Positions 13,913-41,657 of a stretch of 41,657 bases of DNA are shown here, in pieces (positions within the stretch are counted from its first letter, which is position 1; the number at the start of each line of letters is the position of its first letter). Location of the stretch: NCBI GenBank assembly GCA_045863395.1, contig BTVJ01000062.1:1-41657 (forward strand). Direction: 5' to 3'. Both the position numbers and the translations under genes were made by a program. The stretch comes from Myxococcales bacterium. GTDB lineage: Bacteria; Myxococcota_A; UBA9042; JABWCM01; BTVJ01. The notes under the pieces are model-generated. The model was not told the origin of the DNA and made no database searches. It was given only the letters and a program-made list of their open reading frames with translations.

Positions 13913-13944
13913 GAACCCGCTGGCGGGGCGCTCTGAGGGTGTTG

Positions 13945-13992
13945 CCAGGAGGCCCGTCGTGTCCGCGAGGGCGCCCGCGACGGGCCACCTGG
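13945..13992 (+). terminator. Intercistronic stem-loop after rubrerythrin (partial terminator or mRNA stabiliser)
   Basis: ccagg-a-ggcccgtcgtg ... cgcgacgggcc-a-cctgg paired arms. Confidence 0.45.
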
Positions 13993-14047
13993 GCTACGCC
14001 TTCGTGCTCGCCCCGCCGTTCGCCCCCCTCCAGCAGGCGAGCGTCCC

Positions 14048-18473: not shown

Positions 18474-20447
18474 ATGCGACTTCGAGCAACACTGAGCGCC
18501 TCCGCGCTGCTGTCGGCCCTGGTGCTGGCGGGCGCGGGCTGCGAGTCGGACCCGTCGTCCTCCGGGTCCAACAACTCGGGCCAGGACGCGGCGGGAGACA
18601 CGACAGGCGGCGGCACCGAGGACGGGAGCGTCGCCGGCGACACCGCCGGACCCGGTGGCGGAGACACCGCCAAGCCCGGCGACGACGCCACCACCCCCGG
18701 CGATGATGGCGCCAGCACGACGGATGTCCCCGTAGGGCCGAAGCCGGATCGTGTGGTCGACCTGCGGGTCGACACGAACCGAAATGGCGTCATCGACCTC
18801 GACGACCCCACGGAGGACGAGGGCGAGGACGAGTGGACCGCCGACCACGGCGCCATCTTCCTGGCGAACATCGACGACGACTTGGTGGCCTGTCCCAAGT
18901 CGGGCAAGGGCATCAACGACATCACGCTCCCGGACTGCAACGACGCCGCGGACGAGGTGGTCAACGGCGAGAACGACCTGCTGGACATGGCGCCCCTCCA
19001 CGTGGTCGCCATCCCCGACGCCCCGGACGGCGCGAAGGGCCACCTCGACCTCGGGCCCTTCGGCACCGACCGGGCCCGGCTGTTCATCGAGCGCGACGGC
19101 GAGTGGGTCTACTTCAATCCGCGCCAGGAGGACCTGACGGGCGCCGAGCTGCGCGCCGGCGTCAACCTGAAGCTCGAGGGGCGGGACGTGGTCCGTGACA
19201 CCGAGGCATGGGACGGCATGCTCCCCATCGAGCTGACCGTCGACTACGGCGACGGGACCAAGGACTCCGACAAGGTGCAGATGCGCGTCGCGCCCATGGT
19301 GCTCTACCACCACCTGCTCGAGGGCGAGATCTCGCACGTCACGACGTTCAACTACGCGGCGTCCAAGGTCTTCCGCGACGACCTGAAGAAGGCGAACGCC
19401 GCGATGGCGAAGCCCGTGACCTTTGACGAGATCAGCGTCGGCGATCAGTGGACACAGGACTTCTTCGAGCCCGCGTACATGTCCATGCCGTCGCCGAGCG
19501 GCCAGCACGCAATCCGCGTGTACCTTCGCAGCGCCAACGTGTTCAGCCCGAGCAACGCCTCCAACCCGCTGCGCCCGGCTGGCAAGGTGGTGTTCACCCA
19601 CTTCCGCGGCAAGGACGCGGCGGGCGTGCAGCAGTTCGACATCAAGCACAACGGCCAGTCGGACTCGCTGAACAGCTTCGGCAACACGGAGACCATCCCG
19701 CCCTACAGCAAGGACGGCGTGGACTACCCGCTGGGCCGCGTCTTCCAGGGCGAGATCCCGTCCTTCGCCATGGACAAGAACTTCGTCAAGATGATGGACT
19801 CGCAGGCCGTGCAGCCGCGGGTGACCGTCGACACCTCGTGGCTCCTCGTGGGGCACGTGGACGAGACCATCACCTTCGTGCGGGCGGACAATGAGCGCGG
19901 GTGGACCATCGGGCGCAACGACGCCATGATGGCCGTCCACATGCTGGAGGAGCTCGAGGCGGCCGGCCACGGCGCCGTGCCCATGTTCGTCGGCAAGGAC
20001 TGGGACGAGAACGACCCTGCCGAGGCGACCATCGCCGAGGTGCTCGACGACACGGACGTCATGTCCGAGACCGCCGCGTCCGCCGCGGAGGTGGACGACC
20101 AGGTCGAGATCCTGAAGGAGGTCACGGGCGTCACAGACGACGAGATGCTGCTCGTGCCCTACCTGCACTGGAGCATCTACGGGTACTCGGTGGCGTACCA
20201 ACCTGGCACGATCAACGGCCAGTACCTGGACCACAAGACCTTCGCGCCGCCCGAGACGCACGGCCCGCTGATCGACGGCAAGGACCCCTTCAAGGAGCAG
20301 TTCGAGAAGGAGTTCGCCAAGGTGGGCGTCAACGTCTACTGGATTGAGAACTGGGACCTGTACCACGCGCTACTCGGCGAGGTGCACTGCGGAACCAATA
20401 CCACGCGGGAGATCCCCAGCGTGAAGTGGTGGGAGACCGGACGATGA
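18474..20447 (+). CDS. Protein-arginine deiminase (PAD) family lipoprotein
   Basis: Lipobox LAGAGC, acidic linker, 'GAIFLANIDDD', catalytic motifs 'DQWTQD', 'WLLVGHVDE', 'GEVHCGTN', C-terminal 'KWWE'. Confidence 0.9.
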   Translation: MRLRATLSASALLSALVLAGAGCESDPSSSGSNNSGQDAAGDTTGGGTEDGSVAGDTAGPGGGDTAKPGDDATTPGDDGASTTDVPVGPKPDRVVDLRVDTNRNGVIDLDDPTEDEGEDEWTADHGAIFLANIDDDLVACPKSGKGINDITLPDCNDAADEVVNGENDLLDMAPLHVVAIPDAPDGAKGHLDLGPFGTDRARLFIERDGEWVYFNPRQEDLTGAELRAGVNLKLEGRDVVRDTEAWDGMLPIELTVDYGDGTKDSDKVQMRVAPMVLYHHLLEGEISHVTTFNYAASKVFRDDLKKANAAMAKPVTFDEISVGDQWTQDFFEPAYMSMPSPSGQHAIRVYLRSANVFSPSNASNPLRPAGKVVFTHFRGKDAAGVQQFDIKHNGQSDSLNSFGNTETIPPYSKDGVDYPLGRVFQGEIPSFAMDKNFVKMMDSQAVQPRVTVDTSWLLVGHVDETITFVRADNERGWTIGRNDAMMAVHMLEELEAAGHGAVPMFVGKDWDENDPAEATIAEVLDDTDVMSETAASAAEVDDQVEILKEVTGVTDDEMLLVPYLHWSIYGYSVAYQPGTINGQYLDHKTFAPPETHGPLIDGKDPFKEQFEKEFAKVGVNVYWIENWDLYHALLGEVHCGTNTTREIPSVKWWETGR

Positions 20448-25016: not shown

Positions 25017-26609
25017 TCAGCGCGGTTGGAGCGTCCGCGGGCCGACCTTGCGCTCAGGCTTGGGCTCCGGCTTCAGAGGCTCGACCACGAGCTCCGCCCG
25101 GTCCCGCCGGTCCAGCTCGGTTGTCGCCTCCCGCAGCGGCGCGGGTCGCTCGTCGATGCGCCCCGCCTCTTCGGCCCCGCCCGTCTCCCCCACGACCGGC
25201 TCGTCCACCGGAGCCTCCGGAGCGGGAGCCACCGGCGGAGCCTTCACCGGCGGCACGGCCTCGGATGGCGGCGCTCCTACGCTGGGCGGGGCGACCGGCG
25301 CTGCCCCAGAGGCTGGCACCTTGGACGGGATGAAGCGGTCCACGAGGGTCGGGTCGACGAGCAGCGCTACACCGATGCCGGCGATGACCAGCAGCAGGAA
25401 CAGCATGGTCACGAGCAGCCAGCGTCCCCGCTCGGGTGGCGGATCCTCGATGCGCACCGGCGCGGCCTCGGCGATGCGAGGAGGTGGGGTTGGGGCGGCA
25501 GAGGGCGCCTTGATGCGCGCCCCTGCCCGCTGGGGTGCCGCTGGCCGGGCGGCCTCCGCCTCCCCCCTGGGGGTGGGGTGCACGACCGCCGCGGGGGCCG
25601 CGCTCGGGTTCATGACGAAGACGGTAGTGGAGTCCAGCTCCGACGCCTCCTGCACCTCGTCGATGGCCGCGACCACGTCCATGGCCGAGTCGAACCGATC
25701 CGAGGGGTTCAGCGCCATGAGCCGCGCGAGGAGGCCGTCGCTCCCTGGTGGCGCCGCGACGCGCGGCGCAGCGACGCTGAGCAGGAGCGGCTCCTCGTAG
25801 AGCACGCGCTGAACGGTGCCGGCCATGTTGGCCGCCGCCAGGGGGCGAGCTCCGGTCAGCATCTCCCAGAGGACCACGCCGAGGCCATACAGGTCGGAGC
25901 GGGGCGTCGGCTCGTCCCCCGCCACCACCTCCGGGCTCACGTAGGCTGGGTGACCGAAGGTCAGGCCGCCGCCCATCTCCGTCGCGTCCCAGGCTGCGAC
26001 CTGGGTGAGCCCGTAGTCGATGACCGTCGCCACGTCGATGCGCCCGAAGGCGTCGCGAAGGAGAACGTGCTCGGGCCGCAGGCAGGCGTGGACGACCCCC
26101 TGGCCGTGTGCCTCCGCCAGGGAGTCGGCCACCTGCCGCGCGATGGCGAGGGCGCGCTGCGGCGGGATGCGGCCGTCCCGCTCCAGCTTCCGGCGCAGAT
26201 CCTCCCCCTCGACCAGGTCCATCACGATGAACCCCTGCCCCTGCGGCGTCTTGCCGAAGTCGTGCACGGAGACGGTCTGTGGGTGCTTGAGGCGGCTGAT
26301 CAGCCGAGCCTGGGCGAAGTACCGGTCCAGCGACTCCGGGTCGGCGGACAGCTCCGGATGGAGCACCTTGACGGCGACGCTCCGTCCCATGGTCTGGTCG
26401 ACGGCCCGATGGACATCGCCCAAGGCTCCGCCGCCGATGCGTGGGCCGAGGGCGTAGCGGCCGCCGAGCACGGACCCCGCCATCACACCCCGGGGCCGCT
26501 CCTCGATGAGGATGGCGCCGTCCGCGGGACAGCGGGCAACGTCGTCGCCGGCACCGGTGCTGCATACTGGACAAAGGCGGGACATCACGGACTCCTCGTG
26601 CGCTGCCAT
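25017..26609 (-). CDS. Membrane-anchored Hanks-type Ser/Thr kinase-like protein (probable pseudokinase)
   Basis: N-terminal CPxC..CP; GGGALG, VAVK, DYG, SPE, SDLYGLGVVLWEMLTG; catalytic loop reads HACLRPEH; one TM helix; start 26609 or 26585. Confidence 0.85.
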   Translation of the reverse strand: MAAHEESVMSRLCPVCSTGAGDDVARCPADGAILIEERPRGVMAGSVLGGRYALGPRIGGGALGDVHRAVDQTMGRSVAVKVLHPELSADPESLDRYFAQARLISRLKHPQTVSVHDFGKTPQGQGFIVMDLVEGEDLRRKLERDGRIPPQRALAIARQVADSLAEAHGQGVVHACLRPEHVLLRDAFGRIDVATVIDYGLTQVAAWDATEMGGGLTFGHPAYVSPEVVAGDEPTPRSDLYGLGVVLWEMLTGARPLAAANMAGTVQRVLYEEPLLLSVAAPRVAAPPGSDGLLARLMALNPSDRFDSAMDVVAAIDEVQEASELDSTTVFVMNPSAAPAAVVHPTPRGEAEAARPAAPQRAGARIKAPSAAPTPPPRIAEAAPVRIEDPPPERGRWLLVTMLFLLLVIAGIGVALLVDPTLVDRFIPSKVPASGAAPVAPPSVGAPPSEAVPPVKAPPVAPAPEAPVDEPVVGETGGAEEAGRIDERPAPLREATTELDRRDRAELVVEPLKPEPKPERKVGPRTLQPR

Positions 26610-28029: not shown

Positions 28030-31000
28030 ATGATGTTGCGCGGTTGGTCGATCACGTGGGCGCTGGTCCTGGCCCTCTCGGTGGCTGGGTGCCCAGACGA
28101 CGACGTCACCGGGGGCGGAGGGGACGTCGACGCCGAGGCAGATGCCGAAGGCGACGTGCCGGACGGGACGTCGGACGACGGCGGGGGCGGCGACGACATC
28201 CACGCGGACTCCGGGCCAGGGACGGACACGGGGAGCTCGGCGAGCATCGAGCTCGTCGCCCTCACGGCGGTCGGCGTCCGGGGCCTGGGCGTCGACCAGT
28301 TCGCGCTGACCCAGTTCGACGAGCCAGCCGCCTATGTCGAGAGCGCCGGGTATCAGATGGACCTCCAGGCGCGCGCGCTGGGCCTGCCCAAGGCGACCCC
28401 CGTGACCCTCACCATCGACGGCGTGGACAAGGGGACTGCCTCCCTGGACGCCAACGTCACCAACTTCCCGGAGGTGACGCTGACTCCGGGCGTCCACCAG
28501 ATCAAGGTGCGGGCCTCCCTTGGGGGCCAGCTCATCGAGGACGGCAACACAGTGACCGTCGGGGTCGGCCCCTGCGACGTGACCGTCTCTCCTGGCCCTG
28601 CCGCCTGCCTGCTGACCGACGTGGATCCCGCCACCGCGGGCCTCCAGGTGACGTTCACGGTCGCGAACCCCAACAAGAGATGCACCCTGGCGTATCTACA
28701 GATCAACGGGCCCTCGGGGACCGCGCAGACGGCGCCGGTGGCCCTCGACGGGGACGGGGTGGCGACCATCACCGCGTCGCTGACCACCGACGACGTGCCC
28801 GTGAACACCGCCCCCGTGGAGGTGACCGCCGTTGTCACGTGGCCAGGGGTCGACGAGCTGACCTCCGCCAAGGTGAGCACCTACAAGATCGATACGCAGG
28901 CTCCCGCACCGACAATCACCACACCCTTCAAGCCGATCCTCACCGCAGCAGACGACGAGGGGGACCCGGCGACTCCCGGCATCTCCATCACCGTCAAGGG
29001 GGACGTAGCTGGCCTGTCCGCCGAAGAGCTGGACAGCCTGACGCTGACGGTGAACGGGGAGCTGCGAGGCACGACGTCGCCCTCCACCAACGGGAAGTTC
29101 CAGTTCAAGAACGTGCAGTTCGACGCATCCGGCGATTACACGCTGCGCGTCGTTGGTGTGGACACCTGCGGGCTCACCGGGTCCACGGAGCAGGGCGTCA
29201 CGGTGGACCTGGGCGCGGTGCCACCGGCTCCCGCGGTGGACCTGGTCGCGGTGACGGCGCAAGGCGTCAAGGGCGCCGGCGCTGCGACCATTCCGCTCGT
29301 TGCCGCGGACGAACCCGCCGCCTGGGCGGCGGCCGCGGGCTTCCAGATGGACTTCGAGGCACTGACGACCAACGTCCCCGCAGGCACCACGGTCACCGCC
29401 AACGTCGGCGGCGCGGTGCTCCAGGCGCAGACCGACGGAGCAGGCGCGGCCCGGTTCGAGGGAGTCAACCTCACCAAGGGAGACACGACGATCTCGGTGG
29501 GCCTCACCACAGGTGGGCAGACGGCCCAGGTCACGAAGGTGGTCTCGCTGGACATCGCGGCCTGCGACGTGCTGGTCGAGCCGGCGGGCGGCTGCCTGAC
29601 CGACGACGCGTCGCCCGCCCCCGGCCTCCAGGCGACGATCCTGGTGAAGAACCCGGACGGGCTGTGCGACACGGCGACCCTGACGGTCCAGACGGACACC
29701 GGATCCACCGAGCTGACGGCGACCCTCACGGCCGGACAGGCGAGCTTCCTCGTGACCATCGCCGCGGCCGGGGTGGACGACGTGACCCTGACCGCCACGG
29801 CCAAGGTGGAGTCGGGCGGCGACCCCTCACTCACGGCGCAGACCAACGCCATCTCGTTCCTCGGCGACGCGCTGCCGCCAGCGATCACCATCACCGAGCC
29901 GGCGAGCGCGACGGTGTCCACGACGGCGGACGCGGACGGCGACCCGAGCAACGGCCTCCAGCTCGACCTGGCGGGCACCGTTGCGGGCAACCACGCCCTG
30001 GACGGGCTGGCGCCGCTCGCCGTCTCGGTGGACGGCGTGGCCCAGGGCAGCGCGGCGCAGACCGGCGGCCTCTGGACGGCACAGATCACGGTGGCTGGCT
30101 CGGGCACCTATGAGGTGGCGGTCAGCACCGCCGACACCTGTGGCCTCGCGGCCTCGGCCACGCTCAACTTGACCGTGGTGGACGTACCCGCGCCCGCGGT
30201 CGACCTGGTGGCAGCGACGGCCAACGGTCCCGTGGGGGAGGGGGTGGACTCCATCGCCCTCGACGCCACCGACGAGCCCGTCACGTACCAGAGCACCCCG
30301 GGCTTTCAGATGGACTTCTCCATCCTGACGACGAACGTGCCGGAGGGAGTCGTCGTGACGCTCTCCGTAGGCGGGGCGACCTTCGAAGCGGCGGTCGACG
30401 AGAACGGGGTCGCCCTGGTCGGTGGAGTCGTGCTCTCCAAGGGCGCTCAGGTGGTGAGCGTCACGGTCTCCGTGGGCGGGCAGACCGCGATGGTGGAGAA
30501 GACCATCACCCTGGACGTCCCGGCGTGTGACATCGTGTTGGAGCCGTCCGTGGCGTCCTGCCTCACCGACGATGCGTCCGCGAACCCCGGCTTCCAGGCG
30601 ATCTTCACGGTCAGCAACCCGGATGGTCAGTGTGACGTCGCGGCCCTCGTCGTGACAGACACCGATGGGGCAAAGGTCACGCTCGGCGCGGCCCTGGTCG
30701 ACGGGCAGGCCACCTTCGTGGCGACGCTCGCGGCTGGAGGAGCCGACGGCGAGACGGCGCTCGTCGCAGCGGCCGTGGACAGCACGACAGACCCCGAGCT
30801 CGCGGCTCAGACCAACGAGGTGGCGTTCCCCGTGGACACCACGGCGCCGGTCATCGCCATCATCGAGCCCGTCGGCGATCTCACGACGGCGGCGGACCTC
30901 GACGGTGACCCGTCCAACGGGGTCCAGGTCACCGTCTCTGGCACGGTCAGCTCCGCGACCGCAGTGACCCTGACGGTGGACGGCGCCCCGCAGGGCGCGG

Positions 31001-34000
31001 CCACGGTCGACGGCGGGGCCTTCACGGGTGCGGTGACCCTGCCGGGCCTGGGCGAGCACGTGATCACGGCGACCGCGACCGACGGCTGCGGCCTCACGGG
31101 GGCAAGCGACGTCACGCTGACCCTGCTCCCGGTGCTGGTGCCGACCATCGAGGTGATCGCCTCCACGGCCAACGGCCCCCAGGGCGAGGGCGAGGGCACA
31201 ATCACCCTCGGGGCGAGCGACGAGCCGGCCGCGTGGCTCGCGACGCAGGGCTACCAGATGGACTTCGTCATCCTGACCGAGGACGTCGCAGAGGGCACGC
31301 CGATCACCCTGCTCGTGGGCGGCGCGGAGGTCCAGGCGCCTACGGGCCCCGGCGGCGTCACGGTGTTCGCCGGGATCAACCTGACCAAGGGCACCCAGGC
31401 CGTTGGCGCGTCCGTGACGGTCGGTGGGCAGAGCGCCACGTCGGCCAAGATCGTGATCCTCGACATCCCCGCCTGTGATGTGACCATCGAGCCCGCGACG
31501 CCTGCGTGCCTCACGGAGGACGCCTCCGGCGATGCGGGCTTCCAGGCGGCCTTCACGGTGCGTAACCCGGACGGGCAGTGCGACGTGGCGGGCCTGGTCG
31601 TGACGCGCACCGACGGGACGACGGCGACCCTGACGGCCCCCCTGGTCGGCGGTCAAGCCGCTTTCGTGGCGACGCTTGCCCTCGGGGCCGCGGACGGCGA
31701 GACCGCCAAGGTCGCGGCCTCGGTGGACAGCACCCTCGACGGGGGCCTCTATGCCCAGACCGGCGAGGTCGCGTTCGCCGTGGATGCAACGCCTCCCGAG
31801 GTCGCGATCACGACCCCGGCCAGCGACACGGCCTCCACCACCGACGACCTGGACGGCATCGCCGCCAACGGGGTCCAGCTAACCATCGGAGGGACGTCCA
31901 CAGGGGCGACCACCGTCGAGCTGTTCCTCGGTGGGGCCTCCCAGGGGGCTCAGACCCCGTCGGTGAGCGGCGCGTGGTCCTACGAGGTGACCTTCACGGG
32001 AGCCGGGACCTTCGCGCTCGCCGTGCAGGCGAGCGACGGCTGCGGGCTCGAATCGTCGGCGCAGAGGTCGCTGACCATCGCGGCGCCGCCCGTCGAGGTG
32101 GCGGTGCTGTCGCCGCTGGGCGCCTCAACCCTGTTTGCCAAGGGCGACGGTGACCCGGGCACGGCCCTCGTCTACGAGAGCACCTTCACGGCTTCGGTGA
32201 GCCTGCCAACGGAGGGCGGCGTCCTTCAGATCCAGTGCACGAGCGCCGATGCGCCCGGCCTCTACGTGACGGTGGGCAGCGTCACGCTGACCCAGACCGA
32301 CATCGACAGCGCCGTCGCCAGCGCGTTCGACGTGCCCGTCGGCATCGACGTCGGGTCCATCGGCACTGCGAACACTCTGTGCCGCGCCACCTACGAGCTT
32401 GGCGACCTGTGGCAGAGCGATCCTGTGCTGATCATCGTGGCGCTCCCCGCGCCCAGCTTGGTGATCGCCGCGCCGGTGGCCGGCTGGGCGACCAGCTCAC
32501 TCGCAGTCCCCGCGTCGCTGTTCGCGCAGCACCTGGACGGGGTCACGCCCGTCGTCGTCCTCGCCGACAGCGACGGGACACCGGTGGGAGACCCGATCAC
32601 CCCGGACCCCATCGACGGCGGGGCGCTGGCCTTTGAGGTCTCCCTGACGCAGGGCGGCGCGCCTCTGCCCGACGGCGCCTACACCCTGTTCGTGGACGCG
32701 ACCGACGCCTTCGGGAACCTGGCTTCCGAGCAGGCCGGCGCCGTGACGGAGGTGACCTTCACCCTGGACACGGCGGCCCCGAGCGTGACCATCACGGCGC
32801 CGAAGCCGCTCCTCCAGCCCCAGATCGTCGCGGAGGACGCGGACGAGGACGAGGCCAAGCCGGGCTATCAGACCACCGTGACGGTGACGGTGGGCGCGAG
32901 CGAGCCGATGGAAACCATCGAGGTGTGCCTGACCGTGGGCGCCGCCGCACCCGCCTGCCAGACGCCCACCGCCGGGTCCAGCGAGGTCAGCTTCTCTGGC
33001 GTGACCCTGGTGCCTGGGGCCAACGAGCTCTCCGTCTCCGCCGCCGACCCCCTTGGGAACGTCGGGACGGCAGAGCAGACGACGACCCTGGAGCTGGACG
33101 CACCCGTGGTCGTCATCACGAGCCCGGCGGACGGTGTCTTCGTGACGGTCGAGGCCATCGACGTAGTGGTGACGGTCGCGGACGGCGACGGCACGCCGAT
33201 CCCGGGGGCCGACGTGGAGCTGCTCATCGGCGGAGTGTCGTCGGGCGTCGCCGGCACGGAGGATCCGGCGGGCACCTGGACCTTCGCTGCCGCTCCCCTG
33301 GCCGCGGGTCCCAACGAGCTCCAGGTGACCGCCACCGCAGCGGGCGTGTCCGGGGCCAGCGCTTCGATCACCGTCAACCGCAAGACGACGCTCCCGTCCA
33401 TCGGCATCACCCTGCCGACGGACCTTCAGACCCTGAACCTGGCGTCCACCGTGTGCCAGACCGGCGTCACGCCCTGCATCCTGGACGTCCAGGCGCTCGT
33501 GGAGAACGTCGCCGATGGCGTCGAGACCACCCTGACCGTCGACTGTGGCGCCCCGGACACGTTCGTGAGCGTGGTGGCGAGCGGGACGAGCACCTGGGCG
33601 GGCATCGTCCTCCCCCACCAGTCCACGTGCTCGCTCAAGGCCAGCGTCGTGGACCTGGCGGGGCAGCCTGCGGAGAGCGCCTGGATCACCGTCTCCGTGG
33701 ATCGGGTGGCGCCGGTGCTCCTGTCCTTCCCGAAGCCGACCGGCGACGTGATCCAGCCCACGGCGGACGAGGAGGTGCTGGTCCCCGGCGTGCAGAAGAA
33801 GGTCCAGGTCAACGTCCGCGGCGTGGAGCAGGGCCGGGTCATCCAGGTCCGCGTGTACCCCGAGGGCACCGACCCGAGCACCGTGGCCCCGACGCTCTTC
33901 GGGGCCGCGCAGACCGCCGTGTCGGACACGGGGACCCTCACCGTGGAGGTGGGGACCCTCAGCATCACCACCAACGGCTTCTGGGTCCTTCAGGCGGATG

Positions 34001-37000
34001 TGATGGACGCGGCGGGCAACCCGGCTGCGTCGCTGTTGCGAACCATCTACTTCAACGTGACGGCGCCGGTCGTCAGCATCGTGAGCCCGACCAACGTGGA
34101 GCCGGTGGCTTGCACGGTGAACGCCAACTGCGGCCCGGCGGGGATCTGCAACGACGGCAAGTGCGCCGTCCCCTGGGGCATGAACGCGACGCGCTCGGTG
34201 CTCCTGCAGCTCACAGGGATCGCGTTCGGCACCGACAACCTCCGGCTGTGCACGAACAACCCAGGAAACGGCGGCTCCCCCTGCGCGACGGCAGGCTTCA
34301 CGGTGGCGAAGATCGGCAACGCGACCAGCAACTCGGTCTCACTGGACGCCTCGGCGCTCGGCGATGGTCTGCACCGCATCATCGCGGAGGCAGAGACCTT
34401 CCCGGGCGACGGAGACTGGGCCTCGTCGCTGGTGACGGCGGGAGCGGGCCTGAAGGAGCGAACAATCTTCATCGACACCGTGGCGCCCGTGGTCACGCAG
34501 ATCACCAGCACCTCCGACACGCTGCCCCCGGCGTTCGTGCTCAACCAGGCCGAGCAGGTCTCCCCGAGCACCTTCGCCTTCGCGGTCACGGCTACGGACA
34601 ACGGCCTCCCAGCGAAGGGCACGCTGGAGGTGTACGCCAATGCCGGGTTCAAGGTGAACCTCCCCATCACGGCGGGAACCGCGTCCGGCAATGTCAACTT
34701 CACGGCCGACGGCGTGAAGAAGATGCAGGCGGTGGTCCGTGACACGGTCGGCAACACCAGCCTCCCCATCGCGAACGCCGCCGCATACTCCGTCAACTAC
34801 ACGGTGAAGGTGGCCCCGCTGACGCTCACGTTCCTCGCGCCGACCAAGTCGCCGCTGCTGGCTGGCGACTCCCGCGCCGTGTCACTGAGCAGCAACCAGA
34901 CCTCAGGGACGGTCGCGATCCTCGACGGCGGGGTCGAGGTGGCCTCCAAGGCGATCGGGGCGGACGGGACCGTCCTGTTCGACCACGCCACCTACGGCAT
35001 CCTCTCGGACGGGGCCCACGAGCTGACGGCCGTCCTCACCGACACGGCCAACAACACAGCTCAGGCGGCGACCGAGCCGGCGGTCATCACGGTCGATACG
35101 GAGCCGCCGACGGTGGCGCTGGCCGCACCAGTGACAGGAGCCCTGACCGACGCCGACGACGCCGCGCCGACCACGGGCGGGTTCCAGGTGGCCGTGGAAT
35201 TTGCCACGGGCGAGGCGTCGTCGTGGAAGATCCTGCTCCAGAGCGGGTGCACGGCGGCCTTCACCGGCTGCGGCGCCGCAGTGACGGTTGCCTCTGGCGC
35301 CATCTCCAACCCGGGCGGGTCGGAGCCGGTCAAGGTGATCACGCTGCCGATCACTGCGGGGGACACCTGGCACAAGGTGACCGTCGAGGTGAGCGACGCG
35401 GTCGGCAACAAGGCGACGGCGACCGCGGACGTTCAAGTGACGCTCGCCGCCTGCGTGGTGAGCTTCACGAACCTCCCGCTGGACGGCACCTACAACGGCG
35501 ACGACTGCGCGGCACCGGGGTGCACGAGCATCGATGTGAACCTTGGCGTGCAGTTCCTGGGCCCCTGCAACGGGGTAGACACCCTGACGCTCTACAAGGA
35601 TGGGGTGCCCGTGGGCCAGGCGACGGACCTCGCCACCCAGGAGGCGACCTTCCCCCTCACTCTCAGCGATGGTGAGGTGTTCACCATCTGGGCGGAGCTG
35701 ACCTCGGGTGGGGGCCTGGTCGCTGAGACCGGCAACTTCGATGTCGTGGTGGACCTGATTGATCCGGAGGTGGCCTTCACGGCCGCGACGGTCCTGGGCT
35801 TCCAGACGCCGGCGACCGGCGCCTCGATCCAATGGGGCCTGGCGGCCGACCAGACGCCAGGCTCCACGTCCACCCTCGAGGTGCACATGCGGGTGACCGT
35901 CACGGGCGGTGCCTCTGGGCAGATCGTCGCGCTCACGGCCACCGGCCCTGGCGGGACGACCGCGCTTGCGGCGGGTGAGACCCCCGTTGCGGTGACGGGC
36001 ACCCCGTTCGTCCACGACTTCAAGTTCGTCTCCATCCCCGACCAGGGGGTCTACACGGTGGTCGTGACCGTGGCGGACGGGGCAGGCAACCAGGCGTCGT
36101 CGTCGTTCCAGGCGACGGTGGACATCTCCCCGCCCGAGGAGGTGATCATCGAGCCCATCGATGCGCTGCTCGACGTGGTGCCGCGCCTGCCCGCGGTGAC
36201 CCTGAAGTGGCAGCCGCCGTCGTCCAACACTGGTGTCCCGGGCGGGCCGGCCAGTTCCTACGAGATCCGGTACTCCTCCGAACCCATCGCCACGGACGCG
36301 GATTGGGCCGACGCGTGCCCCGTCGCGGCGCTTCCCTTCGTCGCCCCGACCCCTGCGCCGGGCGACCCCGACGGCGCCGCATTGGATACCTACGTGGTGA
36401 GGGGTCCCGACCCCCGCTCCATCAACACCAACGCCGCGTGCAAGTTCGCGGTGCAGCCCGACGCAAAGGGTTGGTACTTCGCGATCCGCGCTACGGACGC
36501 GGTGGGCAACCAGTCCCCGGTGACGGGGACCGGCGCCGCCTTCACGGACGCCGCGAGCCTGAGCTACGCGAAGATCACCCACACCGTGGCCGCGCCCATG
36601 GGCAACGAGGTGCGCCTGGAGGACAAGGTCTGGGCCATCGGCGACATCAACGACGACGGCTACGACGACCTGGCGGTCGGCGGCCAGGACATGAGCGGCT
36701 TCTGCATCGTCTACGGGCACGACAACGGGGGCGACCCCCTGGCGGACGTGGCGCTCGCGGCGACCAGCGGCACGAACTACCAGTGCATCTTCGACGCAAC
36801 GCCAACGGCCCTCGGCTTCCCCATCGCGCGGGGTGGCGACATGAACGGCGACGGGCTCCCAGACCTGATCGCGGGCGCGGGCATCAAGCTCGGCGCCAAC
36901 CTCTACCCCGAGGAGGTGCGGGTGTACCTGGGCGTCACGGGAGGAGGTCAGATCGACCCAGTGCCCGTCCTGACGGTCAAGGGCACCACCAACAACGCGA

Positions 37001-38013
37001 TCTTCGGCCTCAAGAACATCGCCTCGGCGGGCAACTTCAACGGGGACGTCCACAGCACCACAGGACTACCCATCGAAGATCTGATCATTCCGAGCGGCAT
37101 CGGCAACAAGGTCTTCATCGTGCCCGGCAGCGAGGCCTTCGTGCCCGGATCATCGACGACAATCAACGTGACCAGCGCGACCGACCGCGCGGCGTGGGAC
37201 GTGGTGACAGTGACCGTGAGCGGCGCCCAGGGGAACTCCTACTTCGGTTGGTGCGTCGAGGGCGCGGGCAACATCCTGACGGATGTGGGCTCGTCCCAGT
37301 ACGACGACGTGCTCATCGCCATGGCCAAGGATCCAGCCCAGGTCATCCTGCTGAAGGGGCGCCCGGTGAGCGGAGACACGGTGATCCCCCTGTCCAACTC
37401 CAACAGCGGCGCACAGGCGGGCGACGCGACCGCCGTGCGCCTGTTGCCCGAGCTGGGCGTCGGCACCAACTCCTTCGGTGCGGACCTGGGCGTCCGCCGC
37501 GACCTGGACGGAAAGGGGACGCCGGACATCGTCATCAACCACCAGTACGCGAGCGCGACCGTCGGGCGCATCTACACGTTCTTCGGCGAGAAGCTGACCG
37601 GCAAGGAGGGCCTGTCCGTCTCCGTGCAGCCGTCTGGCCCTGCGACGGTGGATGGCGCGCAGGCGGGCCTCAACGGCGTCATGTACCAGAAGCAGCAGCA
37701 CTACGCCTGGCCGCTCGGCGACTTCGACGGCTCGCTCTTCGGAGAGCAGAGCACGGTGGACCTGGCGTACAGCGTCTACAGCTTCTCGTCCTACGGAAAG
37801 GTGACCATCCGCCTCAACCACGCGAGCGGCGCCCCCGGCATGGTGGAGGGGCTGCTGCCCTTCGAGGACGTCGTCATTCGCGACCCCTACACCGAGCCCC
37901 CGTCCGACAAGTTCGGCATCACATGGGCGCCCATCGGTGACTTCAACGGAGACGGCCTGCCGGACCTGCTGGTCGGGACCAACGGCATGGGCTGGGCAGT
38001 CCTGGTGTACTGA
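28030..38013 (+). CDS. Giant (3327 aa) surface lipoprotein/adhesin: Ig-like repeats, FN3-like domain, C-terminal FG-GAP beta-propeller
   Basis: GGAGGAGG RBS, ATG 28030, lipobox VAGC; many 'D..GN' and 'DT.AP.V.I..P' Big-like motifs; FN3-like 'LKWQPP..SYEIRYS..WYFAIRATD..GNQS'; FG-GAP 'GDINDDGYDDLAVG', 'GDMNGDGLPDL', 'GDFNGDGLPDLLVG'. Confidence 0.85.
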   Translation: MMLRGWSITWALVLALSVAGCPDDDVTGGGGDVDAEADAEGDVPDGTSDDGGGGDDIHADSGPGTDTGSSASIELVALTAVGVRGLGVDQFALTQFDEPAAYVESAGYQMDLQARALGLPKATPVTLTIDGVDKGTASLDANVTNFPEVTLTPGVHQIKVRASLGGQLIEDGNTVTVGVGPCDVTVSPGPAACLLTDVDPATAGLQVTFTVANPNKRCTLAYLQINGPSGTAQTAPVALDGDGVATITASLTTDDVPVNTAPVEVTAVVTWPGVDELTSAKVSTYKIDTQAPAPTITTPFKPILTAADDEGDPATPGISITVKGDVAGLSAEELDSLTLTVNGELRGTTSPSTNGKFQFKNVQFDASGDYTLRVVGVDTCGLTGSTEQGVTVDLGAVPPAPAVDLVAVTAQGVKGAGAATIPLVAADEPAAWAAAAGFQMDFEALTTNVPAGTTVTANVGGAVLQAQTDGAGAARFEGVNLTKGDTTISVGLTTGGQTAQVTKVVSLDIAACDVLVEPAGGCLTDDASPAPGLQATILVKNPDGLCDTATLTVQTDTGSTELTATLTAGQASFLVTIAAAGVDDVTLTATAKVESGGDPSLTAQTNAISFLGDALPPAITITEPASATVSTTADADGDPSNGLQLDLAGTVAGNHALDGLAPLAVSVDGVAQGSAAQTGGLWTAQITVAGSGTYEVAVSTADTCGLAASATLNLTVVDVPAPAVDLVAATANGPVGEGVDSIALDATDEPVTYQSTPGFQMDFSILTTNVPEGVVVTLSVGGATFEAAVDENGVALVGGVVLSKGAQVVSVTVSVGGQTAMVEKTITLDVPACDIVLEPSVASCLTDDASANPGFQAIFTVSNPDGQCDVAALVVTDTDGAKVTLGAALVDGQATFVATLAAGGADGETALVAAAVDSTTDPELAAQTNEVAFPVDTTAPVIAIIEPVGDLTTAADLDGDPSNGVQVTVSGTVSSATAVTLTVDGAPQGAATVDGGAFTGAVTLPGLGEHVITATATDGCGLTGASDVTLTLLPVLVPTIEVIASTANGPQGEGEGTITLGASDEPAAWLATQGYQMDFVILTEDVAEGTPITLLVGGAEVQAPTGPGGVTVFAGINLTKGTQAVGASVTVGGQSATSAKIVILDIPACDVTIEPATPACLTEDASGDAGFQAAFTVRNPDGQCDVAGLVVTRTDGTTATLTAPLVGGQAAFVATLALGAADGETAKVAASVDSTLDGGLYAQTGEVAFAVDATPPEVAITTPASDTASTTDDLDGIAANGVQLTIGGTSTGATTVELFLGGASQGAQTPSVSGAWSYEVTFTGAGTFALAVQASDGCGLESSAQRSLTIAAPPVEVAVLSPLGASTLFAKGDGDPGTALVYESTFTASVSLPTEGGVLQIQCTSADAPGLYVTVGSVTLTQTDIDSAVASAFDVPVGIDVGSIGTANTLCRATYELGDLWQSDPVLIIVALPAPSLVIAAPVAGWATSSLAVPASLFAQHLDGVTPVVVLADSDGTPVGDPITPDPIDGGALAFEVSLTQGGAPLPDGAYTLFVDATDAFGNLASEQAGAVTEVTFTLDTAAPSVTITAPKPLLQPQIVAEDADEDEAKPGYQTTVTVTVGASEPMETIEVCLTVGAAAPACQTPTAGSSEVSFSGVTLVPGANELSVSAADPLGNVGTAEQTTTLELDAPVVVITSPADGVFVTVEAIDVVVTVADGDGTPIPGADVELLIGGVSSGVAGTEDPAGTWTFAAAPLAAGPNELQVTATAAGVSGASASITVNRKTTLPSIGITLPTDLQTLNLASTVCQTGVTPCILDVQALVENVADGVETTLTVDCGAPDTFVSVVASGTSTWAGIVLPHQSTCSLKASVVDLAGQPAESAWITVSVDRVAPVLLSFPKPTGDVIQPTADEEVLVPGVQKKVQVNVRGVEQGRVIQVRVYPEGTDPSTVAPTLFGAAQTAVSDTGTLTVEVGTLSITTNGFWVLQADVMDAAGNPAASLLRTIYFNVTAPVVSIVSPTNVEPVACTVNANCGPAGICNDGKCAVPWGMNATRSVLLQLTGIAFGTDNLRLCTNNPGNGGSPCATAGFTVAKIGNATSNSVSLDASALGDGLHRIIAEAETFPGDGDWASSLVTAGAGLKERTIFIDTVAPVVTQITSTSDTLPPAFVLNQAEQVSPSTFAFAVTATDNGLPAKGTLEVYANAGFKVNLPITAGTASGNVNFTADGVKKMQAVVRDTVGNTSLPIANAAAYSVNYTVKVAPLTLTFLAPTKSPLLAGDSRAVSLSSNQTSGTVAILDGGVEVASKAIGADGTVLFDHATYGILSDGAHELTAVLTDTANNTAQAATEPAVITVDTEPPTVALAAPVTGALTDADDAAPTTGGFQVAVEFATGEASSWKILLQSGCTAAFTGCGAAVTVASGAISNPGGSEPVKVITLPITAGDTWHKVTVEVSDAVGNKATATADVQVTLAACVVSFTNLPLDGTYNGDDCAAPGCTSIDVNLGVQFLGPCNGVDTLTLYKDGVPVGQATDLATQEATFPLTLSDGEVFTIWAELTSGGGLVAETGNFDVVVDLIDPEVAFTAATVLGFQTPATGASIQWGLAADQTPGSTSTLEVHMRVTVTGGASGQIVALTATGPGGTTALAAGETPVAVTGTPFVHDFKFVSIPDQGVYTVVVTVADGAGNQASSSFQATVDISPPEEVIIEPIDALLDVVPRLPAVTLKWQPPSSNTGVPGGPASSYEIRYSSEPIATDADWADACPVAALPFVAPTPAPGDPDGAALDTYVVRGPDPRSINTNAACKFAVQPDAKGWYFAIRATDAVGNQSPVTGTGAAFTDAASLSYAKITHTVAAPMGNEVRLEDKVWAIGDINDDGYDDLAVGGQDMSGFCIVYGHDNGGDPLADVALAATSGTNYQCIFDATPTALGFPIARGGDMNGDGLPDLIAGAGIKLGANLYPEEVRVYLGVTGGGQIDPVPVLTVKGTTNNAIFGLKNIASAGNFNGDVHSTTGLPIEDLIIPSGIGNKVFIVPGSEAFVPGSSTTINVTSATDRAAWDVVTVTVSGAQGNSYFGWCVEGAGNILTDVGSSQYDDVLIAMAKDPAQVILLKGRPVSGDTVIPLSNSNSGAQAGDATAVRLLPELGVGTNSFGADLGVRRDLDGKGTPDIVINHQYASATVGRIYTFFGEKLTGKEGLSVSVQPSGPATVDGAQAGLNGVMYQKQQHYAWPLGDFDGSLFGEQSTVDLAYSVYSFSSYGKVTIRLNHASGAPGMVEGLLPFEDVVIRDPYTEPPSDKFGITWAPIGDFNGDGLPDLLVGTNGMGWAVLVY
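28243..32090 (+). repeat. Four ~320-aa tandem modules inside the giant protein
   Basis: Units start near 28243, 29230, 30193 and 31141, each with 'DEP....G(Y/F)QMD', 'CD(V/I)', 'CL', 'G(L/F)Q', 'NP...C' and 'D.CGL'. Confidence 0.8.
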
Positions 38014-38042
38014 CGCGCCGAGGCGCGAGGAGCAGAGAGAGC

Positions 38043-38207
38043 ATGGAGCAGGAGCAGACCAGGCAGGACGACGGGAGCGAGCGGGAGGCCGACGACCGCC
38101 TCCCGTACACGACGCCACGCATCGAGTCGTCCGATGCCTTTGAGTCCTTCACACTCAACTCGTGCGGGCTCATCCCGGGCGGCTGCATGGACGGCACCAA
38201 CCCCTGA
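38043..38207 (+). CDS. Putative RiPP precursor peptide, 54 aa (MEQEQTRQDDGSEREADDRLPYTTPRIESSDAFESFTLNSCGLIPGGCMDGTNP)
   Basis: Translated by hand, below the ORF-track cutoff; GAGGAG RBS about 10 nt upstream; acidic leader with PYxxPxI motif; Cys/Gly tail; fills the gap directly upstream of kinase, radical SAM and peptidase genes. Confidence 0.8.
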   Translation: MEQEQTRQDDGSEREADDRLPYTTPRIESSDAFESFTLNSCGLIPGGCMDGTNP

Positions 38208-38239: not shown

Positions 38240-39079
38240 ATGGACCGAGCGCGACGCGTGCTGGACCTGGGCCCGCTGCATGCGGAGGTTCTCGCTCCAC
38301 CGGCGCTCGTGGCGGCGCTCGCGAGGTACGCGGCAGCACCACCAGGCGGCGGGTCCCCGATGCGCGTGGAGCTGCTCGATCCGAGGGCCGGCGATGGCCA
38401 TGTGCCGCCCCCTCTCCCTTGCACGCCGGCGCCGGACGACCCCGCGACGCTGGTCGTCGACAGCCCGTGGTTCCGAGGTCACGTACGCAGGGGCGCCGAT
38501 CCTCTGACGCCCCCCTGGTCGGCATCCATGCAGCCCCTGGATCCCGAGGTGCCGCCGACGGGGCTCGAGCGGCGCGTGTTCGCCATGCTTCGGATGCTGA
38601 CGTGCATGAACGTGACCGCGCGAGGGGGCGTCGCGCTGCACGGCGCGACGGTTGAGCGCGACGGGCGGGCTATCGTCTTCGTCGGGCGGCGACGCGCGGG
38701 CAAGACCACGTTGGTGAGGAGGCTGCCGGAGGGGATGCGTTCGCTGGGCGACGACCTGGCCCTCCTGCTGCCGACCGGCGACGGCTTCGTTGCCCACGGG
38801 AGCCCGTTCACAGGACGGGAGCGTACGGCGGCCGAGCTTGGAGCGGCGCCTCTCCATCGAGTGTGCGTCATCGAGCAGGGGGAGCGCACCATCGCCACGC
38901 CCCTCGGCGCACGGGACGCGACGCGAGAGCTGCTGAGGCGGGCGTTCCTTCACGTGGACGCGCCGAGCGAGCGGCAACGGGTGGTGGACGCCACGCTACG
39001 CCTTGTGGCAAGAGTACCCGTGCTGCGAGTCACCATACACCTGGAGACGTCCCCGTGGACGCTGGAGGCCTTGTCATGA
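38240..39079 (+). CDS. HPr-kinase/PEPCK-like P-loop protein (ScmC/HprK-related)
   Basis: 'LHGATV', Walker A 'GRRRAGKTT', 'LGDD', 'HGSPFTG'; stop overlaps the radical SAM start. Confidence 0.75.
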   Translation: MDRARRVLDLGPLHAEVLAPPALVAALARYAAAPPGGGSPMRVELLDPRAGDGHVPPPLPCTPAPDDPATLVVDSPWFRGHVRRGADPLTPPWSASMQPLDPEVPPTGLERRVFAMLRMLTCMNVTARGGVALHGATVERDGRAIVFVGRRRAGKTTLVRRLPEGMRSLGDDLALLLPTGDGFVAHGSPFTGRERTAAELGAAPLHRVCVIEQGERTIATPLGARDATRELLRRAFLHVDAPSERQRVVDATLRLVARVPVLRVTIHLETSPWTLEALS

Positions 39080-40368
39080 GCCGGGTCTACGACATGGAGG
39101 ACAAGCTCCGCGCGCTGTACGTCAAAGACCATCGCCTGCTGAGCCTGCACATCGACCTTGCGCTCAAGTGCGACCTCGACTGCTGCCACTGCTACCTGGA
39201 CGACAAGCGGACGCGCGAGATGTCCACCGCCCAGGTGGTCACGCTCTTCGACCAGGCGAAGCGCATGGGCGTGCTGAAGCTCGCGCTGGGGGGCGGCGAG
39301 CTCTTCTTGCGCCGCGACGTGCCGGAGCTGCTCGAGGAGGCCCGCAGGCGGCGCTTCGCCATCGTGCTCAAGACCCATGGCGGCACCGTGTCCGACCGCA
39401 TCGCCGATGCGGTCCGCGACGCGGGCGTGGTGCGGGTCGACGTGAGCGTCTACGCGCTGGACTCGAGCATCCATGACGCGATTACCCGGCGCGAGGGCTC
39501 CCTGTCGCGGACGCTTCGCGGCATCGAGCGCCTGACCGAGCGGGGAGTGCGCGTGCGGGTCAACTGCTCGGTGATGCACAGGAACCGCAACCACTACAAG
39601 GACCTGTACCGGGAGATGGTCCGTCGCGGCGTCGAGTGCCAGCTCGACGGGTCCATCCACGGCACCCACGGCGGGACCATGGAGACCGCGGCCCTCAACC
39701 TGACGGTCGCGGAGAAGGCGGACCTCGAGCGCTTCAAGCACGACGAGATGAAGGACAGCCCGAGCCTTGGCGGGGCGGATCCCGACTTCCACATCTGCTG
39801 GGCGGGGAAGATCAGCGGCCACGTGGCCCCCGACGGATCCCTCACGCCCTGCGTAGCGTGGCCCATGCCCGTCGGCAACGTGCTCGACACGCCGCTGGAT
39901 CTGCTATGGAAACACGCGCCACTGCTGCAGGAGATTCGAGGGGTGCGGCGCAAGGACCGCGGCTGCGGCGGGTGCAGCTTCGAGCACCAGTGCAACTTCT
40001 GCCCAGGCAAGGCCTACGTGGAGAACCGCGGCGAGTGGCTGGCGCCCGCGCCGCTCCAGTGCGCCGACACCACGGGCAAGGTGTGGGGGATCCTCGCGTT
40101 CAACGCCTCGCAGGTGCACCCCGAGCGGCGGGTGGAGTTCCCCATCCTCAAGCCGGGCGCCCTCCACGCGGGGCCGGCGCGCGCAAAGGGGCAGCCCCGG
40201 CCCAAGCTCACGCCGGAGATGGTCGAGCGCGTCCCGCGTGAACAGACCGGGCGCCCACGGTCGAGGCTCTTCCGCATCCTGAGTGACACCGAGGTGCAGG
40301 GCGCCCGCGGCGACGGGTCCGCGGGGACCATGGAGCACGTGGCGCCGGTGCCTCGGGCGGCCGGATGA
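39076..40368 (+). CDS. Radical SAM/SPASM peptide maturase
   Basis: CxxxCxxC 'CDLDCCHC', GGE motif 'GGGEL', SPASM 'CWAG...DGSLTPC...GNV...CGGC....CNFCPG...C'; ATG 39076 in an ATGA overlap. Confidence 0.9.
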   Translation: MSRVYDMEDKLRALYVKDHRLLSLHIDLALKCDLDCCHCYLDDKRTREMSTAQVVTLFDQAKRMGVLKLALGGGELFLRRDVPELLEEARRRRFAIVLKTHGGTVSDRIADAVRDAGVVRVDVSVYALDSSIHDAITRREGSLSRTLRGIERLTERGVRVRVNCSVMHRNRNHYKDLYREMVRRGVECQLDGSIHGTHGGTMETAALNLTVAEKADLERFKHDEMKDSPSLGGADPDFHICWAGKISGHVAPDGSLTPCVAWPMPVGNVLDTPLDLLWKHAPLLQEIRGVRRKDRGCGGCSFEHQCNFCPGKAYVENRGEWLAPAPLQCADTTGKVWGILAFNASQVHPERRVEFPILKPGALHAGPARAKGQPRPKLTPEMVERVPREQTGRPRSRLFRILSDTEVQGARGDGSAGTMEHVAPVPRAAG

Positions 40369-40823
40369 GCCAAGAGCACGCGGAGGAGCACGCTCGGGTT
40401 GCACCCGCTGCGCTGGGAGACCTCGCCCGCCAGCGCCTGTCGCGGGGCGGCCCGTTCCGATTCTACGCCCGGGGGCTCAGCATGCGCCCGTCCATCCCCG
40501 ACGGGGCCCGGGTCACGGTGGCTCCACTTGGGAGCCGCAGCGTGAGGCCGGGCGACGTCGTGCTGCTGCTCGTAGGCGAGCGGGCGAGCGTCCATCGGGT
40601 CGTGGCGCGGTGGGCGGGCCTGGTGTGGACCAAGGGCGACCTGAACCCATGGACGGATCCTCCTGTGTCCACGGCGTCGGTCCTCGGGCGCGTCGTGGCC
40701 GTGGAGCACGGCGGGAGCCACCGACGTCTGGACCACACGGCCGATGGCCTGTGCGGGGTGGGCTGGGCAGCGCTCGCCCTCCTGGCGGGCCTGCGGGGCA
40801 GCCGATGGCCCGGTTTTGTTTGA
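40365..40823 (+). CDS. S24/S26 family peptidase (Ser-His type)
   Basis: 'GLSMRP', 'GDVVLL', 'VHRVV', 'TKGD', 'VLGRV'; ATGA overlap with the radical SAM stop. Confidence 0.82.
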   Translation: MSQEHAEEHARVAPAALGDLARQRLSRGGPFRFYARGLSMRPSIPDGARVTVAPLGSRSVRPGDVVLLLVGERASVHRVVARWAGLVWTKGDLNPWTDPPVSTASVLGRVVAVEHGGSHRRLDHTADGLCGVGWAALALLAGLRGSRWPGFV

Positions 40824-40926: not shown

Positions 40927-41657
40927 ATGCCCTGCCGCTCGCCCATCGCCGCTGCGCTCGCCGTGCTGATCGCCGGGACGTCAGCGTGCGCCACCCAGGA
41001 CGAGCAGATCCAGCGCCAGATGGAGCAGATGAGACGGGAGCTTGCCGAGTCGCGGCGCTCCAATGAGGCGCTGGCCGACCGCCTCCGCCAGATGGACGGC
41101 CGCCTGTCGCTCCAGGTGGATGCCACTCGGACGCCACCGCCGAGCGCTCCGCAGTACACCGGCGCTGTCCCCACACTGCCCGTCATCAAGGCGTCGCCGG
41201 CGGCCCCGGCACCAGCCGCAAAGTCGCTGGCACGCCCCAAGGGGGGGGCCCGACGCGTGGGCTCGAACATCCACGTCCCGGGCCAGGAGCCCTTGACGTT
41301 CCGGAACATCGACGGGGAGGGGCGAGTGGTGGGGGAGGACGGTGAGCCCGTCGAGCCGCGCCGATCCACGCTGCCTCCCCGTGAGCTGGATCTGCCTCGC
41401 GCCACGGACCTGCACGGCGCAGCGGCGGATGACGCGGACGACCCGCGGGAGGAGCCTGCGATTCAGGTGGCAGACGTCCCCCCGCTGCCGGTGGTCCGCG
41501 TCGGAGACCACGATGCGGCACCTCGCGCCGGTGGAGCGGTCGGTCAGGGTGCGACGAGGCGCACCCCGGGGAGCGCGGACTCCACGCCCCTCCCCATCGT
41601 CACCGCGCCACGGGAGGAGCCCCTCCCCATCGTCTCCGCGCCACGGGAGGAGCCCCT
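40927..41657 (+). CDS. Lipoprotein with N-terminal coiled coil and Pro-rich linker (possibly CpoB/YbgF-like); runs off the window
   Basis: Open frame from ATG 40927 (or GTG 40921) to the window end: MPCRSPIAAALAVLIAGTSAC-ATQDEQIQRQMEQMRRELAE...; lipobox TSAC; C-terminus not visible. Confidence 0.6.
   Translation, partial: MPCRSPIAAALAVLIAGTSACATQDEQIQRQMEQMRRELAESRRSNEALADRLRQMDGRLSLQVDATRTPPPSAPQYTGAVPTLPVIKASPAAPAPAAKSLARPKGGARRVGSNIHVPGQEPLTFRNIDGEGRVVGEDGEPVEPRRSTLPPRELDLPRATDLHGAAADDADDPREEPAIQVADVPPLPVVRVGDHDAAPRAGGAVGQGATRRTPGSADSTPLPIVTAPREEPLPIVSAPREEP
41587..41657 (+). repeat. 33-bp in-frame tandem repeat (PLPIV(T/S)APREE), at least 2 copies, truncated by window edge
   Basis: cccctccccatcgtc(a/t)ccgcgccacgggaggag at 41587 and 41620; a third copy starts at 41653. 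Confidence 0.85.

Follow-up and report, generated by a model that had tools for sequence, protein, structure and literature searches.

The 54-aa open reading frame (ORF) at 38043-38207 on the forward strand of the window, the whole 41,657-nt stretch of Myxococcales DNA analysed here, is a real small gene. Its product is a precursor peptide that is very probably phosphorylated, cross-linked and trimmed by the enzymes encoded next to it. We consider it likely that the peptide is the substrate of an RRE-dependent maturation pathway combining a kinase, a radical SAM (rSAM) enzyme and an S26 peptidase, with a role at the cell envelope or in cell contact. The interpretation given in an earlier note on this DNA, which mentions neither the giant lipoprotein nor the displaced RRE described below, is partly supported.

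The precursor gene, its operon and their conservation

The 54-aa translation was reproduced as first reported, and the good ribosome binding site claimed for it is found as GAGGAG at 38027-38032 (+), 10 nt ahead of the ATG. The precursor starts 30 nt past the stop codon of a giant lipoprotein gene. A codon model trained on 1734 long ORFs of the genome gave it a score of 0.33 per codon (GC3 0.91), compared with 0.2-0.5 for the long genes of the window and -1.16 to 0.06 for the other five frames of the locus. The leader-plus-Cys pattern occurs 10 times in the 212,288 stop-to-stop frames of the genome, a frequency within chance, so the case for the gene rests on its position and conservation. No Pfam or NCBIfam model matches the precursor; the ESM Atlas entry for its sequence is a hypothetical protein, and the unnamed clusters resembling it at 0.90 serve as no more than a lead. 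Scanning the sequence around the ORF gave no sigma-70 promoter or terminator match. RNA-run contigs from four studies touch the precursor, one of them spanning the 3' end of the giant gene into it, and were left out of the evidence because they show neither strand nor level and may contain DNA. The genome holds no paralogous precursor, and contig C145, which copies the end of the window at 100% identity, is taken as assembly redundancy.

Upstream, the giant lipoprotein gene (28030-38013, +) encodes 3327 aa from the ATG at 28030, with a lipobox-type signal, Ig-like repeats (Pfam Big_13) and a C-terminal FG-GAP beta-propeller of the integrin-alpha type. Its last 490 aa were modelled with a pLDDT of 91 and a pTM of 0.93, and integrin alpha heads are the best structural matches of the propeller. 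The protein is about 950 residues longer than the 2350-2450 aa usual in the class, apparently via extra N-terminal Ig-like repeats; the giants of L025, L026, L032 and L041 are likewise expanded, and a partial paralogue (45% over 1149 aa) is located on G000:C9. Downstream follow three genes overlapping by ATGA, all with intact catalytic motifs. The first (38240-39079, +) encodes an HprK/PEPCK-fold kinase that is ScmC-like below the cut-off (TIGR04249, 48.7 bits vs 125), has PEPCK matches and, by column counts in the alignment, retains the active-site His (H134), the P-loop and the DD. The second (39076-40368, +) encodes a radical SAM/SPASM maturase with no fused RRE, bearing CxxxCxxC at 32/36/39 (model pLDDT 86). 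The third (40365-40823, +; TIGR02228) encodes a leader peptidase (S26; S24/S26) that is like signal peptidase I of the archaeal type, with a Ser39/His77/Asp triad, the same as that of LppS; S39 and H77 are kept in 31/31 sequences, D92 in 30/31 and D98 in 28/31. The start of a probable CpoB/YbgF-like lipoprotein gene (40927-41655, +) runs to the contig end; the gene at the orthologous position in L023 scores as YbgF above the cut-off. A CpoB-like gene lies downstream in 24 of 37 loci and is probably a syntenic neighbour, not part of the pathway, while an NTP_transf_5 gene ends the operon in three of the 37.

The window holds no RRE. The genome has two PqqD genes, and the one at G000:C71:10287-10556, over the PF05402 cut-off, is the cognate, orthologous RRE of the operon: with a profile built from the relatives and without this sequence it scores 90 bits, compared with 28 for the other, and beside it lies the same divergent neighbour as beside the intact operon of L029, L032-L035, L037 and L041. 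As this RRE stands beside the operon's usual divergent neighbour, the remaining operon would have moved away in this lineage. The RRE directly precedes the giant gene in 28 of the 34 relatives with enough sequence; L021, the closest relative belonging to the same order, is also without an RRE at that place. The C71 RRE (L066) adjoins a divergent MAM-like lipoprotein gene, as the intact operons of several relatives do. The second PqqD, on G000:C114 (L065), is of HPr-rel-A type just over the cut-off, lies between a small ORF and an ATP-grasp-like gene, and marks a different peptide cluster.

Concerning conservation, the rSAM enzyme has matches (E-value 1e-40) in 44 of 61 genomes, once in each, the second match in the genome itself being the duplicate contig. 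Among the relatives there are 43 loci, one of which ends 95 nt upstream, leaving 42 with upstream sequence. All 42 show the order giant-precursor-kinase-rSAM-S26, and all 42 have a YxxP-type ORF 0.8-1.2 kb before the rSAM gene, as found by a pattern search not requiring Cys together with the inspection of two loci; loss of the motif next to homologous maturases had been named as a finding that would overturn the precursor reading. Gene-order profiles were built from the same loci and show order, not sensitivity. In an even sample of 301 genomes, a precursor profile matched 41 of 58 genomes of the class and 29 of 243 from other classes. Eight class genomes had the enzyme and no precursor match; inspection revealed the precursor in seven of them, the remaining one being cut. 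From the other classes, 29 of 30 precursor matches adjoin a kinase, rSAM or S26 gene, and none was used for the profile. The operon is single-copy, and the pathway is kept in about five of six class genomes. A quick tree of the rSAM enzyme (44 rows, 13 host families) requires a minimum of 12 family-label changes, against a mean of 30 for shuffled labels; it follows the host families, which points to vertical inheritance and to a cell system passed on by descent, not a mobile weapon. Viral contigs contained no close relative, only four distant rSAMs with 22-28% identity. In the scan of contig collections the single protein found nothing and the alignment found the matches; among the 79 listed of 181 matches, most named carrier records bear titles of Myxococcota, Myxococcales, Deltaproteobacteria or Bradymonadia MAGs.

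Some loci depart from the common arrangement. L104 and L178 carry two inverted precursor-kinase-rSAM copies with different cores, facing one S26 gene. In L179, L184, L185 and L197 (family f34) an RRE-giant-precursor-kinase block is present and the rSAM and S26 genes are scattered on the chromosome, so that their action on the precursor in these four genomes is an assumption. Upstream of the giant gene, L206 and L207 have a second, distant rSAM gene overlapping the RRE match, together with an NTP_transf_5-like gene at the operon end.

Leader, core and proposed maturation

The leader carries the motif [Y/W]xxPx[L/V/I/A/F/Y] as Y22-x-x-P25-x-I27 (38106-38123, +), which is an RRE-binding motif as defined in the accessible part of PMC13381572. 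The positions of this motif, of C41 and of C48 agree with those first described. The reading also holds that this is a precursor of RiPP type, with a YxxPx(V/I/L) leader for RRE binding and conservation next to homologous maturases. We aligned 37 precursors, from the 42 relatives and the window, near-duplicates and three later pick-ups being left out. P25 is invariant, position 22 is Y or W in all, and L38 is nearly invariant. Over 16 loci, leaders are more alike the more alike their rSAM enzymes are (Spearman 0.41, Mantel p 0.008), which is not so for the cores (0.01). The search pattern proposed in the earlier note allowed four residues (x4) from I to FE, one fewer than the x5 of the peptide; it matched none of the 37 precursors, and its corrected form matched two.

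The predicted 14-residue core, C41-P54 (38163-38204, +), is Gly-, Cys- and Pro-rich and hypervariable across the family; a core made of about the last 14-17 residues, close to the original proposal, is supported. Its cysteines, proposed as thioether donors, are the sole constant, with at least one Cys in 37/37 cores. The C-x6-C spacing is no family feature: it occurs in 6/37 aligned precursors and in 11 of 108 distinct tails, seven of the 37 cores have a single Cys, and spacing ranges widely. The 108 tails comprise 76 from the class (a few of unknown class) and 32 from other classes, and all contain Cys, two Cys-free matches having been removed beforehand (L205, with no maturase nearby, and L200, with a kinase only); one further tail dropped out because of the pattern, and five loci gave no match. 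Asp or Glu is present in 64/76 in-class cores and in only 11/32 from other classes, at positions that are not conserved, and Gly in 72/76 and 31/32, respectively. Asp50, Asn53 and Thr52, which had been offered as acceptors, are therefore not family features, given the low presence of Asp/Glu outside the class and the lack of a conserved position.

That the cleavage site could not be determined from sequence was too pessimistic a view, as the family alignment leaves two testable sites. Among characterised systems, that of the linear polyphosphorylated peptides (LPP; lppA-K-B-S-D-N of Paenibacillus alginolyticus) comes closest. According to the accessible part of its description (PMC13381572), the RRE binds YxxP, an HprK kinase phosphorylates core Ser3, and cleavage behind F-E-T, 16 places from the Tyr, is due to an SpI-like peptidase (S29/H68/D93) in which a hydrophobic cleft takes up the Phe. 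In our peptide the conserved leader ends with L38-N39-S40 (38154-38162, +), which would be either P3-P1 of the cut or, in the LPP register, the first three core residues with S40 as phosphorylation site. A cut at S40|C41, after place 19, has a hydrophobic P3 and a small P1 in 37/37 precursors, the sole such cut among ten scanned. At T37|L38, the LPP register, P1 is small in 11/37, P3 is hydrophobic in 2/37 and both hold in 1/37. Judged from these residues, cleavage would probably fall at S40|C41 rather than at T37|L38. Such a cut would let the best-conserved Ser leave with the leader (S/T at place 19 from the leader Tyr, that is S40 or core place 3 in the LPP register, in 31/37), and the kinase would have no fixed target within the class, where a C-terminal Ser is found in 4/37. 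Relatives from other classes show A-L-[AS]-C at this point, with Cys at place 19 in 28/32 and a Ser among the last two residues in 26/32; the latter may recall the kinases of phosphorylated lasso peptides. A lipobox reading of the L-x-S-C leader end was rejected, as no hydrophobic stretch precedes it, and so was a PQQ/mycofactocin-like cofactor product, as the core is not conserved.

We propose the following pathway, in which RRE binding, phosphorylation and cleavage are drawn by analogy with LPP, while we infer the type of cross-link, the cut site and the biological role. The displaced stand-alone PqqD-type RRE would grip the YxxPxI leader and present the peptide to the three enzymes. The HprK-like kinase would phosphorylate a Ser/Thr of the peptide, and the radical SAM/SPASM enzyme would join the sulfur of a core Cys to a carbon of the backbone or of a side chain, with an alpha-carbon as the likeliest acceptor and Gly favoured. 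Leader removal would fall to the SpI-like peptidase, with L38-N39-S40|C41 as the most likely site, and the product would be a peptide of 14 (or 17) residues that is both phosphorylated and cross-linked; without modification, the core would have a monoisotopic mass of 1333.5 for the cut at S40|C41 or 1647.7 for that at T37|L38. A natural kinase-rSAM fusion (P0104) counts for a shared pathway; further natural fusions (P0069, P0038, P0042) include RRE-rSAM and tandem double rSAM proteins. Being single-copy, vertically inherited and, as predicted, co-expressed with a giant surface lipoprotein, the operon would most likely yield a product with a cell-envelope or cell-contact function, not a mobile antibiotic. 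A scan of neighbouring genes in 11 loci showed neither a transporter nor an immunity gene, leaving export unexplained. With the substrate, the displaced RRE and two sharp cut predictions at hand, the pathway becomes testable in E. coli from five short genes.

Radical SAM chemistry and related systems

The maturase has seven SPASM cysteines (241, 259, 297, 300, 306, 309 and 329), of which C241, C259 and C309 are invariant in 39/39 sequences, and the AuxI site is open; a three-Cys AuxI pattern is also described for CrpC in the accessible part of PMC13692751. Its nearest solved relatives are SkfB, PqqE and SuiB, with SkfB the best match in both sequence and structure. The enzyme belongs to a wide family, whose 150 best representatives all have E-values below 1e-79 and in which some members bear a fused RRE. 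An unusual K99-T-H-G motif is present; K99, kept in 37/39, may bind phosphate. At the six proximity positions taken from the accessible part of PMC10288494, the family has Y, S, K, S, V and a variable residue, position 3 being assigned by alignment and not by coordinates. In the same source StsB has Y,T,I,S,K,L and CteB has F,F,T,S,H,Q; SkfB has Y,T,F,S,Q,L by alignment. The family thus has three positions in common with StsB and SkfB and one with CteB. These residues argue against a ranthisynthase and lean to a sactisynthase; CteB-like residues and the conserved Cys-Asp/Glu motif of ranthipeptides are absent. At three of the six positions none of the characterised thioether enzymes compared has a matching residue, and the chemistry may therefore be a different one. 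Specifically, the likeness to the sactipeptide maturases SkfB and StsB lies in the Tyr, Ser/Thr and Ser of positions 1, 2 and 4 and in a Cys-/Gly-rich core, whereas Lys, Val and a variable residue at positions 3, 5 and 6, a stand-alone RRE, the lack of a fixed cysteine hairpin pattern and the presence of a kinase and an SpI peptidase set our system apart.

The operon is an uncharacterised pathway that resembles LPP in its logic and departs from it in leader motif and gene set. Both have a YxxP leader with a variable core, a discrete RRE, a kinase resembling HprK, an SpI-like peptidase with Ser/His/Asp and a Ser at place 19. However, an rSAM/SPASM enzyme and core cysteines are found here, while LPP is without a radical SAM enzyme; the NTP transferase of the LPP core cluster is linked in only 3/37 loci, and an MsbA-like exporter did not turn up in the neighbourhood of 11 loci. 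The LPP leader consensus YxxPxVLxHQxIxFETxxS is not matched: Y, P, V/I and the final S are in register, HQ is absent, FE lies two places earlier and L stands at place 17, so that the leader ends in L-x-S instead of F-E-T. Additionally, LPP is patchy in Bacillota, whereas our operon is vertical and single-copy in Myxococcota and includes a giant lipoprotein gene.

The closest orphan models are those of the SynChlorMet cassette (TIGR04248-04251). These and the HPr-rel-A/B models (TIGR04352, 04353, 04355) share an ScmC-like kinase, a PqqD-type RRE and a SPASM enzyme with our operon, which stays below the cut-off for ScmC (48.7/125 bits), ScmD (18.7/100), ScmE (74.5/400), ScmF (80.3/400) and every HPr-rel model. 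One rSAM enzyme is present in the window and the 43 relatives instead of ScmE plus ScmF, and the precursor is without an NCBIfam model. To our knowledge, SynChlorMet and HPr-rel systems are known only from comparative genomics. The present operon would therefore provide a handle on orphan ScmC-type kinase cassettes, and it extends the newly described logic of LPPs (RRE, HprK kinase and signal peptidase) to a radical SAM pathway.

The YxxP leader, the discrete RRE, the HprK-like kinase and the C-terminal Ser of the other-class relatives are reminiscent of phosphorylated lasso peptides of the paeninodin type. Nevertheless, this is not a lasso peptide: the B2 peptidase model PF13471 has no match in the 97% complete genome, and the four PF00733 cyclase matches are all on other contigs, with none among the neighbours scanned. 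In the literature searched, where subscription journals were mostly beyond reach and supplements of rSAM compendia may list the enzymes, no description of the operon was found; the accessible texts on giant genes and on sludge Myxococcota held nothing relevant.

Alternative readings and the giant lipoprotein

The best surviving alternative, possible and yet somewhat unlikely, is an LPP with one enzyme added: the cut would fall at T37|L38, S40 would be the third residue of a 17-residue core and carry the (poly)phosphorylation, an unlinked nucleotidyltransferase would elaborate it, the rSAM enzyme would act on the phosphopeptide and K99 would bind the phosphate. LppA is cut after a T at place 16 and phosphorylated on an S at place 19, and our peptide has T and S at the same places; the frequency of S/T at place 19 and of K99 within the family, and the NTP_transf_5 gene at three operon ends with an unlinked one in the genome itself, agree with it. 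On the other hand, the residues around T37|L38 are poorly kept where those around S40|C41 hold in every precursor, the FET motif needed by LppS does not fall in register, in other classes place 19 is a Cys and the Ser stands among the last two residues, and the unlinked nucleotidyltransferase was found in only 18/58 class genomes with the query used. That enzyme is 27% like the linked one and patchy; in our genome it lies at G000:C33 (L236:1426-2472), coupled to an MraY/WecA-like glycosyltransferase gene.

The modified peptide might be a physical partner (ligand, plug or small subunit) of the integrin-like propeller of the giant lipoprotein, its variable core serving as a kin or state tag, which we find unlikely on present evidence. 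The giant gene sits between the RRE and the precursor, as close to the latter as stated above. Among the 58 class genomes, with the rSAM counted as cognate at E 1e-75, rSAM and giant occur together in 46, neither in eight, the rSAM only in two (82 and 89% complete) and the giant only in two (one of them at a contig break); the relatives are not independent, so this table overstates the link. In other classes, a large FG-GAP protein of 850 to 2900 aa directly precedes the precursor in 17 of 29 loci (14 by strict pattern, three by Pfam or inspection), in at least two gene orders, and three further such loci were found starting from the enzyme. A precedent is QhpC, described in the accessible part of PMC7876137 as a cross-linked peptide that is a subunit of quinohemoprotein amine dehydrogenase. 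With QhpC/QhpD our system has in common an rSAM-modified small peptide encoded among genes for large exported proteins; the QhpC core is conserved and catalytic, however, whereas here the core is hypervariable, the large protein adhesin-like and the partner role putative. Several observations speak against a partnership. The peptide cassette (RRE, precursor, kinase, rSAM and S26) is complete in five f44-family genomes, and the giant is found in 0/5 of these (positive control 5/5). G009, conversely, has a giant followed by 7 kb free of any precursor and lacks the cognate rSAM, and a second giant in G035 is likewise without a precursor. The correlation between core and propeller identity is weak (0.16, p 0.057), and no export route is known for the peptide. 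A complex prediction of the propeller with precursor residues 20-54 scored 0.02, compared with a mark of 0.32, and counts for neither side. The link between giant and cassette is tight, not obligatory.

A bolder version of the partnership is distinctly unlikely as a whole: a house-keeping RiPP of uncultured myxobacteria, single-copy, vertical, phosphorylated, rSAM-cross-linked and free to vary in its core, that would be ligand or small subunit of the giant and act as self/kin tag or adhesion switch, with an active-site lysine of the rSAM enzyme reading the phosphate and a chemistry that is undescribed. A single-copy pathway tied to an integrin-like giant would suggest that a RiPP serves cell contact in a structural or signalling capacity, an unusual role; should the giant be no more than a neighbour, the operon is one more uncharacterised kinase/rSAM cassette.

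We find it very doubtful that the product is a secreted antimicrobial of the sactipeptide type or a predation toxin. The sactisynthase SkfB as nearest solved relative and the hypervariable core would suit it, as would the hosts, since Myxococcota include many predators. The single copy, the fixed order and a tree following host families speak against it, being unlike the patchy LPP and paeninodins (accessible part of PMC13381572), as do the lack of an exporter or immunity gene among the neighbours of the 11 loci and of a close relative in viral contigs. Finally, it is highly improbable that the ORF is there by coincidence while the enzymes work on a different substrate such as the giant protein: an rSAM enzyme can cross-link large proteins (CrpC; accessible part of PMC13692751) and the RRE gene abuts the giant gene, but a small ORF with the RRE motif is present in every intact locus, also where the giant is gone, the consensus of the giant is without a conserved YxxP leader, and a lipoprotein signal exports the giant, whereas the enzymes appear to be cytoplasmic.

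Elsewhere, the window encodes a predicted lipoprotein with a protein-arginine deiminase (PF03068) domain at 18474-20447 (+), a rubrerythrin followed by a CCG/4Fe-4S protein at 13493-15382 (+), and a Ser/Thr kinase at 25017-26609 (-).
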